A stretch of DNA of 64,000 bases from the NCBI GenBank assembly GCA_050943735.1, contig JBMNPT010000004.1, positions 66,108-130,107 on the forward strand, read 5' to 3'. Made by a program: the position numbers and the translations under genes. The notes beneath the pieces are model-generated. The model made no database searches and was not told the origin of the DNA. It saw only the letters and a list, made by a program, of their open reading frames with translations. Source of the stretch: Eubacteriales bacterium (lineage in GTDB: Bacteria; Bacillota; Clostridia; Oscillospirales; RGIG577). Each line of letters begins with the position of its first letter. The stretch's first letter is position 1. Of this stretch, positions 1 through 46,918 are shown one piece after another.

Positions 1-3000
1 ATCCGGTCAACCTGGGCGCGTACACCGTTACCGCTGCTTTGAAGGCTGACGCTCAGGGCAAGTTTGCCAACTATCAAATTGAGCCTGTTACCGGTACGGT
101 GACCATTGTACAGAACAGCGCCAAATTGAATGTAAACATCGACCATCAGGAGACCCTGACCTACACCGGTCTTGGCGTGGATCCCATTGTGAGCATCCAG
201 GTGCAGGGCGGGACTGATCTGCTGGGCGAAAATGACTACACCATTGGCTTTGCACTGCAGGCTGACGGCCCCTATGATCTCACCCGCAGTGAACTGCCCT
301 CCCATATCAAGGACGCTGGGAATTACACCATTTACTGGCAGGTGCAGACCACCAATTACGGCAGCAAAACCGGTTCTTTCCAGTTTCTCATTGACCGGGC
401 TCCCCTGGTGATCAACCGTACAGTGAATGAAACCAAATCCTATGACGGCACTGTCGAAGCCAAGACTCAAATCTCCCAAATCAGTTTGTCCGGCCTGCAA
501 AATCTGGAGCAAATTCAGGTGGAATGCACCAGCGCACAGTACAACAATCCAACGGTTTCAGCCGATCAGATCACAGTCACCTATACCCTCACCGCTCTGA
601 GCGACACCAAGCTGGACAATTACACCGTTCAGGCGGGCAGCTCCACAGAAAATAACCTGACAGGAGCCAACGGTACCATCACCGAAACCACAGACGGTAC
701 CATTCAACCCGCCCAAGCCACCGTTTCCATCCAGGACCAGTCCGCCGTTTATGATGGAACAACCCCCACACCCAACCAGAACGGGTACACCGTTTCCGGC
801 ATGGTACACAACGAAACCGGCGAAGACCTGAATCTCACCTTCTCGCTGTTCAACGGAAACAGTGACGCAGGCACCTATGCCATCACCGGCCAAGCGGCCA
901 ACCCCAACTACCAGGTTACCTTCACCGGAAACTGGAGCCAGGCGGGCACCTATCAGGGAAAAGCGGGTATTTTCACCATTACAACCCGTTCCATCTCGGT
1001 GGGAATTGGCACCGCCCAGGGAAATTATGGCGATCTGCCCAATCTGAAAAATGTTGTCCTGGACTATCAGCCAACTGACGGCGACGAGGGCCTTGCTCCC
1101 TCTCAAACCCAGCTGGATGGCATTGTTCTGCAGGCAATGACCGCATTGGATGGCACCCCCGTAGACAACCAAACTCCTGTGGGAACCTATCTCATCACCG
1201 GCACCGATCAAAACCACAACTATGACATCACCTTCACTCCGGGCAGCTACCAAATCAATCAGCGGCCGGTGACAGTCACCCTCTATGATCAGGAGAGCTT
1301 CTACGGAGAGAACCTTGCCCAGCTGACCTGGGATGTCACCAACGGCACCATGGCCAACGGAGAATCCCTGGGGATGCAGCTGGAAACCGCTGCCTCTCCA
1401 GACAGTGCAGCCGGCACCTATGCCATTGTGGAGAAATCCCGGGATGACAGAGTCGCCGCCAATTATCAGGTCACCGTTGAAGGAGAAACCCCTTATAACG
1501 GCAACCCACAGCAGGCCACTTACACCATCAAACCCGCGGCTCTCTCCATCCGGTTTGCCAGTCCGTCGGTCAACGTATCCATTGACGGTACGGTGCAAAA
1601 TCCTCTGCAATACACCAACACCAACAGCGGCGCCACATTTACCGACAAACCGGAAGGCGTATCCATCGAATATACCTCTCAACAGCCGGATGTGGCCAGC
1701 GTGGATCCATCCACCGGCGCTGTGACCATTCACCGCTCCGGTGACGCCACCATCACAGCCGTTGTAACCGACGGCGGCACCAACTACAACAGCGGCGCCA
1801 GCGCCACCTATATCCTGCATGTGTCCACGGCGGGCGCCGGAATCCAGGTGAGCGTACAGCCCAAAGAACTGACATACAACGGCAATCCCCAGGAGCTGGT
1901 CACCGCATCGGTAAAAACTCCGGTGGGCGCCACCCTGCAGTTCCGTCTGAGTGAGGCGGATCCCTGGTCGGAGCACATTCCCACCGGCCTTGACGCAGGC
2001 ACCTATACCGTCTATTGGCAGGCCAGCCATCCCGGATATACCACCATTTCCGACAGTGTGGCCGTAAAGATTCAAAAGGCCAATCCTTCTACTGGATTCA
2101 GCCACTCCGACGTGCTTACCACCTATGCCCAGGGAAAGATCTTTGACAGCACCGGCGAAACCACTCTGCAGATCAACCCCCTGTACCAGCAGGAGGCCGG
2201 ATGCAGTATTCTCTACCTGAGCAACAATACCCAGGTGGCCCGTGTGGATGGCAACAATCTGCAAACCATCGCCCTGCTGAGTACCGGAAGAGCACGGATC
2301 AGCGCTGAATTCGCCGAGACAGCCAATTTCCACGCTCAGACTGTATTTTTCAATCTCACTGTAAACGACGCTACCACTACCATTGATTTCTCGGCCGATT
2401 CTTACAACACCGAGTACGATGGTCTGCCCCACGGGAGCCGGATTACCGTCCACTCCCCCCAGAATTACACCATCCGCTACAGCGGCAATCAGGGCAGCAG
2501 CTATGATTTGGAAGAGTCCCCCACTGTCACCAATGTGAATGACAGCCCTCTGACCATCTATTTCCAGGTTCAGGCGCCGGGATATCCCAGCCGGGAAGGA
2601 ACTCAGACGGTACGCATTACCCCCAAAGAACTCAGTCCCACCATGATCTCTGGTGTGGGCAGCAGCTATACCTATACCGGTCAGCAAATTACCATTCCCA
2701 ACCTGACAGTGACGGACGGCAGTACCCTGCTGGCAGAGAATACCGACTATAAGGTAGAGTACGGCACAAACACCCATGTGGGTGAAAGCGACGAGCCTTC
2801 GCTGGCCAATGGCGGCGGATATGTAAAAATCACCGGGCTTGGCAACTACACCGGTGAAATCACCCAATACTTTGCCATTACCTCGGTGGACGCCACCTAT
2901 CTCCAGGCCTCTCTGGACCGCTATTTCGGCCATTACAGCGACAGTGCCACCAATCATGCCACCGTCACAGTGCAGCATGGACAGCATGACGTGGACGCCA

Positions 3001-42610: not shown

Positions 42611-42648
42611 CGCAAACAGCCGGACCTTATGGTCCGGCTGTTTCTGTT
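42611..42648. terminator. Bidirectional terminator shared by the convergent amidohydrolase and GTPase-NYN genes
   Basis: 13-bp stem aaacagccggacc (42614-42626) / ggtccggctgttt (42631-42643) with loop ttat. The stop codon of the minus-strand ORF lies in the loop. Confidence 0.75.
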
Positions 42649-45245
42649 TCTTTGGAACGAATGATGGCCCGACTGCCCAGTCGGTTCATGGAACTGCCCT
42701 TCTGATTGTTTTGATGAATCAATTCCGCAATTTGACCGCTGGTCTGCTCCACTTCTTCCCGGAAGGCCTGAGCGGAAACCCGCATGGCACCATGCCCCAG
42801 AATAATCAGCTGTTCCAGATTATCTGAGGTGGCCACCCGCACTCGATGCTTTTTGCCCAATTCATAGGTGGCTTTTTCAATATAGGCATCCGCGGTTTCC
42901 GCCTCTTTGGTGAAAACCACATGGATATTGTGATACTGCATCACCTCGCCTACCCCTCTGGGCACTTTGTATGCGTCAAATACCAAAATCACCCGGCACT
43001 TGCGAAACCCCTGGTAATTGCACAAAATATCCATCAGCATTTGTCGGGCAGAAGCCACATCCTGCTGAGCGATTGCCCGCAGATCCTCCCAGGCAAACAA
43101 AAGATTATATCCATCCACCAGCAGATACTCCGGCCCTTTGGGCTCCCAATTGTGAGGCGACTGTGCCTGCTCCCTCTCCGGGCTGGGCGGCGCCTGAAAA
43201 TCCCGCCGTTTCACCGGTCCATAGGTTCTTTCAAAAATAGCCTGCAATTCCGCCTCTTCTCCGCCCCAGTTCCGGGAACGCGCGGGAGCTGGCGCAGTGT
43301 GTGATGGCAATGGCTCTTCCTCTTGGGATTTCCAGGCCCACTCCAGATGCATATGCTCCTCCACCTGATCCCATGGAACCACATACCCCGCTCCATGGGA
43401 ACAAAATACAGAATCAGCCGGATTGTCCACATCCCGATCACAGTCATAGCCCAACGCTTCTATCACCTCATCGGCATTGTGGCAAGAAGCATATCCCTCC
43501 ACCGTACAGGAAAGGCGCCCCCTTCCTTGGGTATAGGCTGCCACCTCTCTGGAATATTCCCGCATGGTGGCCACTGGGGCCCTTCCTTTCAAAACAGACC
43601 GTTCTCCCTGCACCTGCGGCGGCTGCATCTCTCCGCCCATCCGCTGAATGTCCGTCATGGCCCGGCCCACACATTCCTGAGGGACATCCAATGAAAAGGC
43701 ATACCAGGGCTCCAGCAGCAGGCTTTCCGTCCGGCGCAATCCTTGCCGCACTGCCCGATAGGTGGCCTGCCGAAAATCGCCTCCCTCTGTGTGTTTGGTA
43801 TGGGCCCGTCCGGTGAGTAGCGTAATTTTCACATCGGTGAGAGGGGAACCGGTGAGTACACCTACATGGGTCTTCTCAGCCAGATGGGTCAGAATCAGCC
43901 GCTGCCAGTTCCGATCCAGCACATCCTCACTGCACCGGCTGGACAGCCGAATGCCACTGCCCCGCTTTCCCGGCTCCAGCAGCACATGTACCTCCGCATA
44001 ATGCCGCAACGGTTCAAAATGCCCCACCCCTTCCACCGGCTGTGTGATGGTTTCCCGATACAAAATCCCTCCGGCGCCAAAGGTGATGTCCCAACTGAAC
44101 CGCTCCCGCACCATCCGCTGCAGCACTTCCATCTGCACCTCGCCCATGGGCTGCAGATGAATTTCCCGCAGGGTTTCATTCCATACCAGGTGCAGCTGTG
44201 GATCTTCCTCTTCCAGCTGCCGCAGCTGTTTCCATGCGGTATGAGATTCCACCCCCTGGGGTAGCTGTACCTGATAGTGCAACACCGGTTCCAACACCGG
44301 CGGTACCGAGGAGAGTTCTGCGCCCAACCCCTGCCCGGGCCAACTGTGTTCCAGGCCTGTGACTGCGCACACCATCCCCGCCGGCACCTCCTGTGCCAAC
44401 TGAAATTTACTCCCGGAATACAAACGGAGCTGATCTGCTTTTTCCTCTCCCTCCGGTCCTGCCAGTACATCCTTCACTCGCAGGACTCCTCCGGTCACTT
44501 TGAGATGGGTGAGACGTGCTCCCTGGCTGTCCCGGGAAATTTTATACACCCGGGCGCCAAAGGTCTCCGGCCAACAGGGCTGGGGAGCATACTGTCCCAA
44601 TCCGTCCAACAGGGCCTCTACCCCTTCCAGCCGCAGCGCCGACCCAAAATAACAGGGAAAGACCTTTCTCTGGCTCACCAGCCGCCGCACTTCCGCCTCC
44701 GGCAGGCTTCCATCCGCCAGATAGTGCTCCAACGCCGCCTCATCCCCCATGGCGGCGGCTTCCTGCCAGTCTGCTCCGTCCATGGCAACACAGCCATCTC
44801 CCAGCTGCTCATGCAGCTCTTCCATCACCCGCGCCCGGTCGGCCCCCGGCAAATCCATCTTGTTGACAAAGAGAAATACGGGGATTTGATAGCGCTCCAA
44901 CAGCTTCCACAAAGTCAGCGTATGCCCCTGCACTCCATCGGTGCCGCTCACCACCAGAATGGCCAGATCCAACACTTGCAGAGTTCTTTCCATCTCAGCG
45001 GAAAAATCCACATGTCCAGGCGTGTCCAGCAATTGAACCTCCAAATCTTTCCATCCAAAAGCCGCCTGTTTGGCAAAAATGGTAATGCCCCGTTCCCGCT
45101 CCATGGCGTCGGTATCCAGATAGGCATTCTGATGGTCCACCCGTCCCAATTTGCGGATGCGGCCGCTGAGGTACAAGATTCCTTCGCTCAATGTGGTTTT
45201 GCCCGCATCCACATGGGCCAATATGCCAACTGTTAATCGCTTCAT
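42627..45245 (-). CDS. Fusion protein: TetM/EF-G-like translational GTPase (about 640 aa), linker, and a Rae1/YacP-type NYN ribonuclease domain (about 170 aa)
   Basis: G1-G5 motifs are visible (AHVDAGKT, RGITI, DTPGH, NKMD, GSAL), and the layout is collinear with TetM/EF-G domains I-V. The C-terminus matches B. subtilis YacP block by block (LLVDGYN, VFDAY, FTKEAETAD, ATSDNLEQ). It is one uninterrupted 872-codon ORF. Confidence 0.85.
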   Translation of the reverse strand: MKRLTVGILAHVDAGKTTLSEGILYLSGRIRKLGRVDHQNAYLDTDAMERERGITIFAKQAAFGWKDLEVQLLDTPGHVDFSAEMERTLQVLDLAILVVSGTDGVQGHTLTLWKLLERYQIPVFLFVNKMDLPGADRARVMEELHEQLGDGCVAMDGADWQEAAAMGDEAALEHYLADGSLPEAEVRRLVSQRKVFPCYFGSALRLEGVEALLDGLGQYAPQPCWPETFGARVYKISRDSQGARLTHLKVTGGVLRVKDVLAGPEGEEKADQLRLYSGSKFQLAQEVPAGMVCAVTGLEHSWPGQGLGAELSSVPPVLEPVLHYQVQLPQGVESHTAWKQLRQLEEEDPQLHLVWNETLREIHLQPMGEVQMEVLQRMVRERFSWDITFGAGGILYRETITQPVEGVGHFEPLRHYAEVHVLLEPGKRGSGIRLSSRCSEDVLDRNWQRLILTHLAEKTHVGVLTGSPLTDVKITLLTGRAHTKHTEGGDFRQATYRAVRQGLRRTESLLLEPWYAFSLDVPQECVGRAMTDIQRMGGEMQPPQVQGERSVLKGRAPVATMREYSREVAAYTQGRGRLSCTVEGYASCHNADEVIEALGYDCDRDVDNPADSVFCSHGAGYVVPWDQVEEHMHLEWAWKSQEEEPLPSHTAPAPARSRNWGGEEAELQAIFERTYGPVKRRDFQAPPSPEREQAQSPHNWEPKGPEYLLVDGYNLLFAWEDLRAIAQQDVASARQMLMDILCNYQGFRKCRVILVFDAYKVPRGVGEVMQYHNIHVVFTKEAETADAYIEKATYELGKKHRVRVATSDNLEQLIILGHGAMRVSAQAFREEVEQTSGQIAELIHQNNQKGSSMNRLGSRAIIRSKETETAGP

Positions 45246-45359
45246 ACCCTACTCCCTGCCTGTCTGTTTGATCTTGCCCTTTATTGTACCACATTTCCCC
45301 CTTTGTGAAAACCTACGTTGCCTTCCTTGCCCACTCATGCTACACTGAAAGAAAAAAGT

Positions 45360-45410: not shown

Positions 45411-45971
45411 ATGACCGATGAAAGCATTGTGGCACTGTATTGGGCAAGAGATGAACAAGCATTGGTGGAAACCGACCGCCAGTACGGAAGCTATTGCCGT
45501 TCCATCGCCTATCACATCCTCTATGATTCGGAAGATGCAGATGAATGTGTCAATGACACCTGGATGCGAGCCTGGAACGCCATGCCTCCTCAGCGTCCCA
45601 ATCGTCTGTCTGCTTTTTTGGGGCGCATCACCCGCAATCTCTCACTGGACCGATATCGGGCACGCCATGCGCAAAAACGCGTCTCCAATGAATTTCCGCT
45701 GATCCTGGAGGAGCTGGAAGGCTGTGCCCCCGCTCCACTGGATACCGAACATATGGCGGAAGACAGAGAGCTGGCTGCCTCCATCAATGATTTTTTGCGG
45801 GAGCTTCCTGTCCGGGAATGCAATCTTTTTCTGGCCCGGTACTGGAACGGGCTGTCCATTGCGGAAATTTCCCGCCACTATGGTCTGACCCAGAGCCACG
45901 TGAAAACCATACTGTTTCGCTGCCGCAACCGGCTGCGCAGCCATTTGGAAAAGGAGGGGATCACACTGTGA
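45411..45971 (+). CDS. ECF-type sigma-70 family RNA polymerase sigma factor
   Basis: About 186 aa. Region 2 reads AEDADECVNDTWMRAW and region 4 reads ECNLFLARYWNGLSIAEISRHYGLTQSHVKTILFRCRNRL. GGAGGAA RBS lies before the ATG at 45411. Confidence 0.85.
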   Translation: MTDESIVALYWARDEQALVETDRQYGSYCRSIAYHILYDSEDADECVNDTWMRAWNAMPPQRPNRLSAFLGRITRNLSLDRYRARHAQKRVSNEFPLILEELEGCAPAPLDTEHMAEDRELAASINDFLRELPVRECNLFLARYWNGLSIAEISRHYGLTQSHVKTILFRCRNRLRSHLEKEGITL

Positions 45972-46918
45972 AAGGAGAACGGCTGTTCACCGCCATTGGC
46001 CAGGCGGATGAAGAACTATTGGACCGTTATCATCGTTCCCTGGCCCGACAGGTACACCCCTGGCGCCGCTGGGCAGCCATGGCTGCCTGTGCGTGCCTGT
46101 TGATTGCCACTGTCCAACTGCTGCCATCCATGATGTCAGGAGGTTCAACTTCCAGTGATTGCAACATGCAGCAATCCACCACATCTGGCGGCGGAAGCGA
46201 CAGCGGCTCCTCTCCCTCTTCCGGGGAACAAGGAAACGACACGTCCGGAGAAACCAACCCCGGCGATGGCTCCACCTCCAATGGCTCTGAAATCCCCCGT
46301 TGGGAAGACCGGAGTCTGACAGAGCGCTTCTCGCAGCTGGAATGGGAGGGCAAGACCTACACCAGCGATGAAGCCACATTGGAGAAAGCACAATTGGGCG
46401 AAACACTGGGCCATGCCACCTTAACCGGGTATGATCCTTACACCCAGCAAACCTACCAATGGGAAGCGAAATTGTATGCCATCCAGGGAATCAACCCCCA
46501 GTGTGCAGTGGCGGTGTGGTTGGAGGGAGAAGACGCACCTCATCCTTACATCAACAGCTCCTATCGTCCAGAAACCTTAGGGGAGTTCTGTGAAGCACTT
46601 TCCCTGCACACAAACCTGGAATTCGGTAGAGTTTGGAAAGATTCCTCCACCCTCGTGCAGGAGGACGCTGATGATGAAGCCATCTGGGCTTTGCTGGACC
46701 AGTGGACGGAAGCCCCCAATGAATGGGATGACGCCGATCCACGTTTCTATCCGCTGGCTGTGGACATCGGAGTGGATTTGCCTCTATTGGGCATCCACAA
46801 TGTCTCCATGGGTGTCACCACCAATGGGTATCTCACCACCAATCTGCTGGCCACCGGAAAGGGATTTTTCATCGGACCGGAAGCCGCAGAGGAACTGATT
46901 CAGTTGCTGCTGGATTGA
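45968..46918 (+). CDS. Putative anti-sigma factor or sigma-associated single-pass membrane protein
   Basis: The GTG start overlaps the sigma stop (GTGA). A short cytoplasmic N-terminus (ERLFTAIGQADEELLDRY) is followed by a TM helix (WAAMAACACLLIATVQLL), an S/G/T-rich linker and a ~200-aa extracytoplasmic domain. Confidence 0.5.
   Translation: MKGERLFTAIGQADEELLDRYHRSLARQVHPWRRWAAMAACACLLIATVQLLPSMMSGGSTSSDCNMQQSTTSGGGSDSGSSPSSGEQGNDTSGETNPGDGSTSNGSEIPRWEDRSLTERFSQLEWEGKTYTSDEATLEKAQLGETLGHATLTGYDPYTQQTYQWEAKLYAIQGINPQCAVAVWLEGEDAPHPYINSSYRPETLGEFCEALSLHTNLEFGRVWKDSSTLVQEDADDEAIWALLDQWTEAPNEWDDADPRFYPLAVDIGVDLPLLGIHNVSMGVTTNGYLTTNLLATGKGFFIGPEAAEELIQLLLD

Follow-up and report, generated by a model that had tools for sequence, protein, structure and literature searches.

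Organization of the locus and of the encoded protein

The window analyzed here, a 64,000-nucleotide stretch of DNA from a Eubacteriales bacterium (contig JBMNPT010000004.1) whose positions are used throughout, carries on its reverse strand a gene that joins a translational GTPase, resembling elongation factor G (EF-G) and the Tet proteins, to an NYN endoribonuclease of the Rae1/YacP type. In the open reading frame (ORF) listing of the window, the gene is a single ATG-to-stop ORF of 872 codons (42627–45245, reverse strand), just as a preliminary description of this DNA, made from its letters, had stated. It is flanked by a convergent amidohydrolase gene downstream and by a divergent gene for an extracytoplasmic function (ECF) sigma factor, and the 64,000-nt window contains no second NYN or translational GTPase gene. 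An identical database protein is titled 'MAG: NYN domain-containing protein [Eubacteriales bacterium]' (P0001). The features of the gene and its flanks are collected in Table 1.

Table 1. Features of the fusion gene and its flanks, in window coordinates
Feature	Residues	Position	Strand	Basis
Whole ORF, 872 aa: translational GTPase, C-terminal mini-domain, flexible linker and NYN endoribonuclease		42627..45245	-	ORF listing, Pfam
G domain	3-221	44583..45239	-	Pfam GTP_EFTU, E 1.6e-52
Domain II	231-299	44349..44555	-	Pfam EF-G_D2, weak; AlphaFold2 beta-barrel, pLDDT ~86-92
Domain III	319-390	44076..44291	-	Pfam EFG_III, 27.2 bits vs cut-off 27
Domain IV	394-505	43731..44066	-	Pfam EFG_IV, E 4.5e-18; AlphaFold2 pLDDT ~85-94
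Domain-IV loop I signature GVGHFEPLRHYAEVH	406-420	43986..44030	-	alignment with reference proteins
Domain-IV tip (loop III) signature GRAHTKHTEGGDFRQATYRAVRQGL	479-503	43737..43811	-	alignments
Domain V	510-590	43476..43718	-	Pfam EFG_C, E 1e-19
Clade-specific C-terminal mini-domain	591-640	43326..43475	-	AlphaFold2 pLDDT 85-91
Flexible charged, Pro-rich tether	641-705	43131..43325	-	AlphaFold2 low confidence
Short conserved helix motif in tether, ELQAIFERTYG	666-676	43218..43250	-	family comparison
Rae1/YacP-type NYN endoribonuclease domain	706-854	42684..43130	-	Pfam NYN_YacP, PDB match
Promoter-like site TTTTCA-17-TGnTACAAT (TG extension)		45283..45311	-	sequence inspection
13-bp GC-rich hairpin, common to fusion gene and convergent amidohydrolase gene		42614..42643		sequence inspection

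Domain anatomy and identity of the GTPase half

Pfam supports both halves of the protein. GTP_EFTU, a weak EF-G_D2, EFG_III, EFG_IV and EFG_C confirm the EF-G/Tet-type body, and NYN_YacP (PF05991) covers residues 708–854 with 165.3 bits against a gathering cut-off of 24.6; the significant hits for which the preliminary description had called were thus obtained for the GTPase (GTP_EFTU, E 1.6e-52) and for the nuclease (E 1.5e-48). The G motifs that it had listed are all present in the translation (G1 AHVDAGKT, G2 RGITI, G3 DTPGH with the catalytic His78, G4 NKMD and G5 GSAL), and they are invariant across 28 relatives of 40–58% identity, and likewise in two further alignments. In the AlphaFold2 model that we used, which was run with a 59-sequence alignment after an earlier run on a shallow alignment had given a poor domain IV, the first five domains superpose on EF-G structures and the overall fold is EF-G-like.

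The loops of domain IV have sequences of their own. Loop I, with the family consensus GxGHFEPLRHYAEVH, is near-invariant in the family alignments and four residues shorter than the EF-G loop; in the reference alignment, the equivalent stretch reads HIEVPPNPFWASIG in Tet proteins and RQSGGRGQYGHV in EF-G. At the tip (loop III), the window protein has GRAHTKHTEGGDFRQ, as compared with YYSPVSTPADFR in TetM and TetW and SYHDVDSNEMAFK in EF-G. The family consensus of the tip is GRAHxKHTEGGDFRQATYRAVRQGL, and AHTKHTEGGD stands where the Tet proteins carry YYSPVSTPAD; the YSPVS loop of TetM, by which tetracycline is dislodged, is thus replaced. According to the family alignments, the tip is the most conserved block of the protein, and loops I and III are the best-conserved blocks overall. 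The tip signature is also found in the unfused orthologues from Lactobacillaceae described below.

The collinearity with TetM, TetO and EF-G, which had been proposed to extend to about residue 640, holds up to residues ~585–590. Residues 591–640 form a clade-specific folded mini-domain that has no detectable similarity to the TetM C-terminus. This mini-domain of ~50 residues, with the core DSVFCxHGAGxxVxW, is predicted to consist of a helix, a β-hairpin and a helix. By alignment it has no counterpart in TetM, TetW, TetB(P) or EF-G and is present in the unfused relatives, and a PDB sequence search with residues 575–692 returned no match. Cys588, Cys615 and His617, which belong to the PCHN and FCxHGAG motifs (residues 588–617, window ~43395–43484), are invariant in relatives at 54–66% identity and are not kept in the most divergent family members; they hint at a small metal site or a structural pair.

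Comparison with named families places the GTPase half close to the Tet proteins and outside their limits. The best NCBIfam match, tet_protect, scores 406 bits and so falls well short of its cut-off of 775; models specific to Tet(M), Tet(Q) and Otr(A) likewise score far under their cut-offs, and the EF-G equivalog TIGR00484 gives 288.6 bits against a cut-off of 659.4. The identity of the GTPase half is 33% to TetB(P), 30% to Tet(W) and Tet(O), 29% to Tet(M) and 27–28% to EF-G. A rough neighbor-joining tree, the internal branches of which are poorly resolved, joins the clade to TetM/W/B(P) as their sister and separates it from EF-G. Based on these comparisons, the GTPase half is assigned to a distinct clade, sister to the Tet ribosomal protection proteins. 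Tet(M), Tet(O), Tet(W) and TetB(P) share the same five-domain EF-G-like GTPase and are the closest named family by hidden Markov model and tree, but the window protein is 29–33% identical to them, differs in the domain-IV loops and the C-terminus, and possesses the extra mini-domain, the tether and the nuclease. We therefore ruled out a plain tetracycline ribosomal protection protein, in line with the preliminary description, given the sub-cut-off tet_protect score, the protein's own domain-IV tip in place of the YSPVS loop, and an unrelated C-terminus that lacks the Tet C-terminal helix. An identity as EF-G was ruled out as well, given the TIGR00484 score, the shortened loop I and the different loop III.

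Moreover, the GTPase exists without the nuclease. Unfused orthologues of 640–660 aa, which have the same domain-IV loops and mini-domain and terminate directly after the latter, are widespread in Lactobacillaceae (Ligilactobacillus salivarius, Companilactobacillus, Levilactobacillus, Paucilactobacillus and Pediococcus); LSL_RS10690 of L. salivarius pMP118, for example, is ~48% identical to the GTPase half. These orthologues, named EF-G, TetM or GTP-binding protein in databases, lack the tether and the NYN domain, and no yacP gene lies beside them at the loci examined. A separate NYN_YacP gene is present in Latilactobacillus curvatus (H90), which belongs to a genus related to the carriers of the unfused GTPase. 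The unfused orthologues indicate that the GTPase is an entity of its own, and within its family the NYN domain appears as an addition seen only in Clostridia members. As to the surroundings of the unfused genes, that of L. salivarius pMP118 (L084, 5529–7920) is divergent from a second S14 (rpsN) gene and a gene for a 'putative metal homeostasis protein', and that of a Levilactobacillus (L094, 6001–9309) lies just upstream of an RsgA-type ribosome-biogenesis GTPase.

Tether and nuclease domain

The stretch between the mini-domain and the nuclease is predicted to be largely disordered, with predicted local distance difference test (pLDDT) values below 50 at residues 642–664 and 675–702 and a helix at 661–675 in between (pLDDT ~55). 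The Pro/Glu-rich linker that had been placed at nt 43134–43325 (residues ~641–704) agrees well with this low-confidence stretch of 642–702. Measured in 369 family members, the span between the mini-domain core and the LLVDGYN motif of the nuclease has a minimum of 74, a median of 92 and a maximum of 206 residues, and the composition of the tether is rich in E, R, A, K, P and S. In 301 of these 369 proteins, the motif ELxxI[FY]ERT[YF]G is embedded in the tether ~33 residues ahead of the NYN domain. Since the linker is disordered and the predicted template modeling score (pTM) is 0.56, the placement of the NYN domain relative to the GTPase body in the model is not interpretable.

The last ~170 residues had been matched to YacP/Rae1 by eye, and this match is borne out not only by Pfam but also by the crystal-structure sequences of Bacillus subtilis Rae1/YacP (5MQ8/5MQ9, E 8e-25), with the LLVDGYN, VFDAY, ETAD and ATSD blocks kept. 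The acidic residues expected in the active site are likewise in place: D711, D757, E783, D786 and D808 align to D7, D53, E78, D81 and D104 of B. subtilis Rae1, and the four aspartates are invariant among relatives at 40–58% identity. The published catalytic mutant of Rae1, D7N D81N, is inactive (PMC10351889). Thus, the NYN domain is predicted to be catalytically intact. It belongs to the same NYN_YacP fold family as B. subtilis Rae1, is ~40% identical to it and keeps all of its catalytic acidic residues. Rae1 is a free protein of ~170 aa, encoded in an rlmB-yacP-sigH / gltX-cysS operon context, which binds ribosomes transiently, whereas the NYN domain of the fusion is permanently tethered at the C-terminus of an 872-aa protein with an amidohydrolase gene and an ECF sigma gene as neighbors.

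Distribution and earlier reports of the fusion

A scan with one genome per species, using the stretch from domain V to the NYN domain as the query, found relatives that span the GTPase–NYN junction in at least 572 species-level genomes; absence of the fusion from other genomes had been named beforehand as an outcome that would speak against it. We compared the best 80 loci of these at least 572 genomes. One uninterrupted ORF covers both halves in 77 of the 80, and the other three are interrupted by contig ends. The loci with a continuous ORF include those of isolates, namely Faecalibacterium prausnitzii ATCC 27768 and UT1, Oliverpabstia, Faecalicatena, Diplocloster and Anaerotaenia. With a single ORF in 77 of 77 complete loci from other genomes, isolates among them, an assembly or frameshift artefact was ruled out, and the gene is a genuine in-frame fusion of a translational GTPase with a Rae1-type NYN domain, continuous across the linker, as the preliminary description had it.

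The carriers are Faecalibacterium and many Oscillospiraceae and Lachnospiraceae, and a profile search found further fusions in Anaerostipes and Blautia. Full-length relatives of the window protein occur at 62–66% identity. In a library with one representative per 50%-identity cluster, we examined the best 150 matches; nearly all are 830–1000 aa long, their identity goes down to 41%, and the E value at rank 150 is still 1e-197, indicating that the family comprises more than 150 such clusters. The C-terminal part is different or longer in a few cluster representatives from this GTPase clade: P0237 (873 aa), the C-terminal end of which resembles a class IV aminotransferase, P0185 (914 aa), P0171 (1156 aa) and P0157 (1069 aa). 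These could be other fusions or gene-calling artefacts.

The architecture is not new, contrary to what the preliminary description implied. Tet-NYN_YacP fusions in Clostridia were described computationally by Atkinson 2015 (PMC4342817), who suggested a role in antibiotic protection with the RNase contributing, and Matelska et al. 2017 recorded a TetM-NYN_YacP fusion for some Clostridia (PMC5499597); between them, the two papers knew some ten species, and both left the function open. Nothing essential distinguishes the window protein from these fusions, which have the same succession of GTP_EFTU, EFG_III, EFG_IV, EFG_C and NYN_YacP. The window gene is therefore one more member of a known, very widespread and uncharacterized family. 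What our analysis adds is that the GTPase forms a separate clade with its own domain-IV tip and mini-domain, that unfused orthologues exist in Lactobacillaceae, and that the tether has a minimum of ~74 residues.

Genomic context in relatives

No gene neighbor of the fusion is conserved across lineages, and no stand-alone yacP lies near a fusion gene in the 1.28 Mb of loci fetched. Within the genus Faecalibacterium there is synteny that takes in an NAD(P)H-hydrate dehydratase gene. The ECF sigma genes of the window are no regular companions of the fusion at the other loci. The two plasmid records with a full-length fusion are large non-mobilizable replicons, and carriage by mobile elements was rejected. 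Full-length GTPase–NYN genes also occur in two records from human fecal viromes labeled 'UNVERIFIED: Bacteriophage sp.', L091 (MT835563.1, 1934–4561), in which the neighbors are NAD(P)H-hydrate dehydratase and Sir2 genes, and L092 (MT835514.1, 1835–4444), in which the fusion lies between an rsmH-like methyltransferase gene and gltX. With such ordinary bacterial genes around the fusion, both records look like bacterial DNA in phage bins, and phage carriage was rejected too. Taken together, the fusion gene behaves like a vertically inherited chromosomal core gene, unlike a mobile resistance or defense gene.

Some genes recur near the fusion in part of the loci. A MatE multidrug-efflux gene is found within 5 kb in 12 loci, mostly of Lachnospiraceae (L004, L022, L040, L043, L053, L060, L061, L064, L072, L074, L077 and L081), and nine of these have it on the same strand, downstream of the fusion. 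An AraC-type regulator is near the fusion in nine loci, and a small GreA/GreB C-terminal-domain protein in six. A Pseudoflavonifractor locus (L001) has an EF-G paralogue at 634–2712 (reverse strand) with an altered G1 motif, GHGASGKT, and DTPGY for DTPGH, and hence without the catalytic His; it adjoins an ECF sigma/zf-HC2 anti-sigma pair and is ~7 kb from the fusion gene.

Possible role on the ribosome

The natural reading of the fusion would be a ribosome-targeted function in RNA cutting. EF-G-type factors dock on the 50S subunit at its GTPase center, and their domain IV reaches into the A site of the 30S subunit, as in the ribosome structures of EF-G and TetM. We favor, with a probability of about 0.5, a nuclease that is anchored by its GTPase and that rescues stalled or collided ribosomes by cutting mRNA at the ribosome edge. 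The GTP-bound GTPase half would dock at the factor-binding site of a ribosome unable to proceed, which could be stalled with a free A site or could be the trailing ribosome blocked in a collision, and the conserved domain-IV tip would read the decoding center. The NYN domain, on its leash of ~60–90 residues, would stay outside the A site and cut the mRNA at the ribosome edge or at the disome interface. The truncated mRNA would feed rescue by transfer-messenger RNA (tmRNA), and GTP hydrolysis would release the factor. In a variant of this scheme, the factor may sit on the ribosome that trails in a collision and whose mRNA entrance faces the tail of the stalled one.

Several lines of evidence support a GTPase-anchored nuclease. 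The G1–G5 motifs with His78 and the NYN aspartates are invariant down to 40% identity, and the conservation of loops I and III above all other blocks argues for a specific contact with the decoding center. The tether is predicted to be disordered and never falls short of 74 residues. The family behaves like a core gene, with an intact ORF in all complete loci, at least 572 genomes, synteny in Faecalibacterium and no true mobile element. The occurrence of the unfused GTPase in Lactobacillaceae, together with a separate NYN_YacP gene in L. curvatus, provides a hint, in the style of a Rosetta stone, that the two activities cooperate. For comparison, collision-dependent mRNA endonucleases are known from other organisms: SmrB of Escherichia coli and Cue2 of yeast, which have the SMR fold and no GTPase module, recognize the disome interface directly. 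Their role, the cutting of mRNA at stalled or collided ribosomes for rescue, is the one proposed here for the fusion and in the literature for Rae1; the nuclease folds are unrelated. Finally, the literature on Rae1 also supports the reading. Rae1 acts only with translating ribosomes and cuts at the tail of stalled ribosomes (PMC12407103), and a 2026 preprint reports Rae1-dependent tmRNA tagging on collided ribosomes, where it generates tmRNA substrates (PMC13622287). Rae1 binds ribosomes only transiently, which explains why there is no structure of ribosome-bound Rae1 (PMC13622287).

On the other hand, some points weigh against this reading. The target of the NYN domain could be rRNA or tRNA instead of mRNA. 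None of the loci compared has a conserved neighbor that points to tmRNA, SmpB or rescue factors. The existence of the unfused GTPase shows that this half does something by itself, perhaps with no connection to mRNA cleavage. A full-text literature search of incomplete coverage found no experimental study of any member of the fusion family.

The preliminary description had proposed delivery of the nuclease to the decoding center under GTPase control. Taken literally, domain IV would steer the NYN domain to the A site, and the codon there would be cut under GTP control, in a manner resembling RelE. Both domains are indeed intact, and a docking model of 2017 put Rae1 in the A site, as retold in PMC12407103. 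However, that model has been explicitly revised by its own authors, who thereby withdrew the idea of Rae1 cutting in the A site (PMC12407103), and the preprint places Rae1 on collided ribosomes (PMC13622287). Since domain IV itself fills the A site, it would compete with the tethered NYN domain for the same space, and both could hardly be accommodated there simultaneously. In addition, a conserved tether of at least 74 residues is longer than such delivery would need and would fit the reach to a distant site better than delivery beside domain IV. Given the revised premise, the competition for the site and the long tether, we regard cutting in the A site as unlikely. Another possibility would be the one raised in the first report of these fusions, an antibiotic-response or resistance factor that protects the ribosome from tetracycline or another drug with a contribution by the RNase. 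It draws on tet_protect as the best NCBIfam match, on the position of the clade next to TetM/W/B(P), on the MatE efflux gene near 12 loci of the Lachnospiraceae type, and on the links of Rae1 to the mRNA of the bmrCD multidrug transporter and to erythromycin-induced collisions (the latter in PMC13622287). We give it little credence, because 406 bits is far under the cut-off of 775, the identity of 29–30% to Tet(M/O/W) stands against 27–28% to EF-G, the gene has neither the YSPVS loop and Tet C-terminal helix nor a leader peptide or attenuator, and it is a chromosomal core-like gene that is not carried on mobile elements.

In eukaryotes, the PIN nuclease Nob1 is assisted by the GTPase eIF5B, which provides an analogy for a nuclease of ribosome biogenesis or quality control. 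Here the GTPase would test the ribosome or its precursor, with rRNA cleavage by the NYN domain serving either maturation or the destruction of defective ribosomes. YacP shares an operon with mrnC and rlmB, and its earliest predicted role was the processing of rRNA or tRNA (PMC4342817, PMC5499597), one of the fusions lies between the rsmH-like gene and gltX, and the unfused orthologues adjoin an S14 paralogue or RsgA. These neighbors are anecdotal and not conserved, however, and all Rae1 substrates shown experimentally are mRNAs that are cut in a translation-dependent manner (PMC12407103, PMC10351889), so that such a role seems to us rather doubtful. A last reading would be an anti-phage effector of abortive translation, which was also among the options of the preliminary description, or a toxin. 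The pairing of a nuclease with an NTPase is common in defense systems, and the targeting of phage mRNAs by Rae1 has been the subject of speculation in the preprint (PMC13622287). Nevertheless, the fusion matched none of the PADLOC defense models at E ≤ 0.01, no defense-island neighbors are present in the window or at the other loci, there is no cognate antitoxin-like partner, and inheritance within Faecalibacterium is near-universal and syntenic; a role in defense is therefore highly improbable.

Implications

The fusion family may even provide the principal endonuclease acting on collided or stalled ribosomes in the dominant Clostridia of the human gut, by which we mean Faecalibacterium, Lachnospiraceae and Oscillospiraceae. 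In this broader proposal, which we put forward tentatively and hold to be doubtful, the fusion would be Rae1 hard-wired to a sensor GTPase, the tip of which reads the decoding center and the GTP hydrolysis of which licenses or times the cut at the ribosome boundary, and the GTPase of Lactobacillaceae would work in trans with free Rae1. If true, this would bring to light a GTPase of ribosome rescue that had gone unrecognized, and would point to it as the ancestor of the Tet protection proteins. A natural covalent tether to a predicted ribosome-binding GTPase also offers a handle on the recognition of stalled or collided ribosomes by Rae1, since a non-hydrolysable GTP analogue or a mutation of His78 could hold the fusion on ribosomes. 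The family occurs in some of the most abundant human gut commensals, and its function bears on how they cope with translation stress and with ribosome-targeting antibiotics.

The common annotations of the fusion and unfused genes are "TetM/TetW/TetO/TetS tetracycline resistance protein" or "elongation factor G". The sequence evidence supports neither name, and the Tet mislabel can inflate resistome counts.

Immediate surroundings of the gene

The gene appears to be monocistronic, as had been proposed, with the promoter-like site of Table 1 ahead of it, the hairpin behind it, the convergent gene downstream and the divergent ECF sigma gene upstream. A ribosome-binding site, AGGGAG, is located at 45252–45257 (reverse strand), 6 nt ahead of the ATG. 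The leader is short, and a leader peptide or attenuator like that of tet(M) was looked for 5′ of the fusion gene and is absent; in this respect, as in the lack of a mobile-element context, the fusion gene differs from tet(M). The bidirectional terminator of the preliminary description is confirmed in part: a 13-bp hairpin does lie between the convergent genes, but a clear T-tract is found on the forward strand only. The TAA stop of the fusion ORF is in the loop of this hairpin, and the last four codons contribute to its stem, which is common to the amidohydrolase gene. On the other side, the ECF sigma gene (45411–45971, forward strand) is followed by a 316-aa ORF without a Pfam match, the pair spanning 45411–46918 (forward strand). 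This second ORF, which has a hydrophobic segment and a Ser/Gly/Thr-rich region, probably encodes the anti-sigma factor of the pair.

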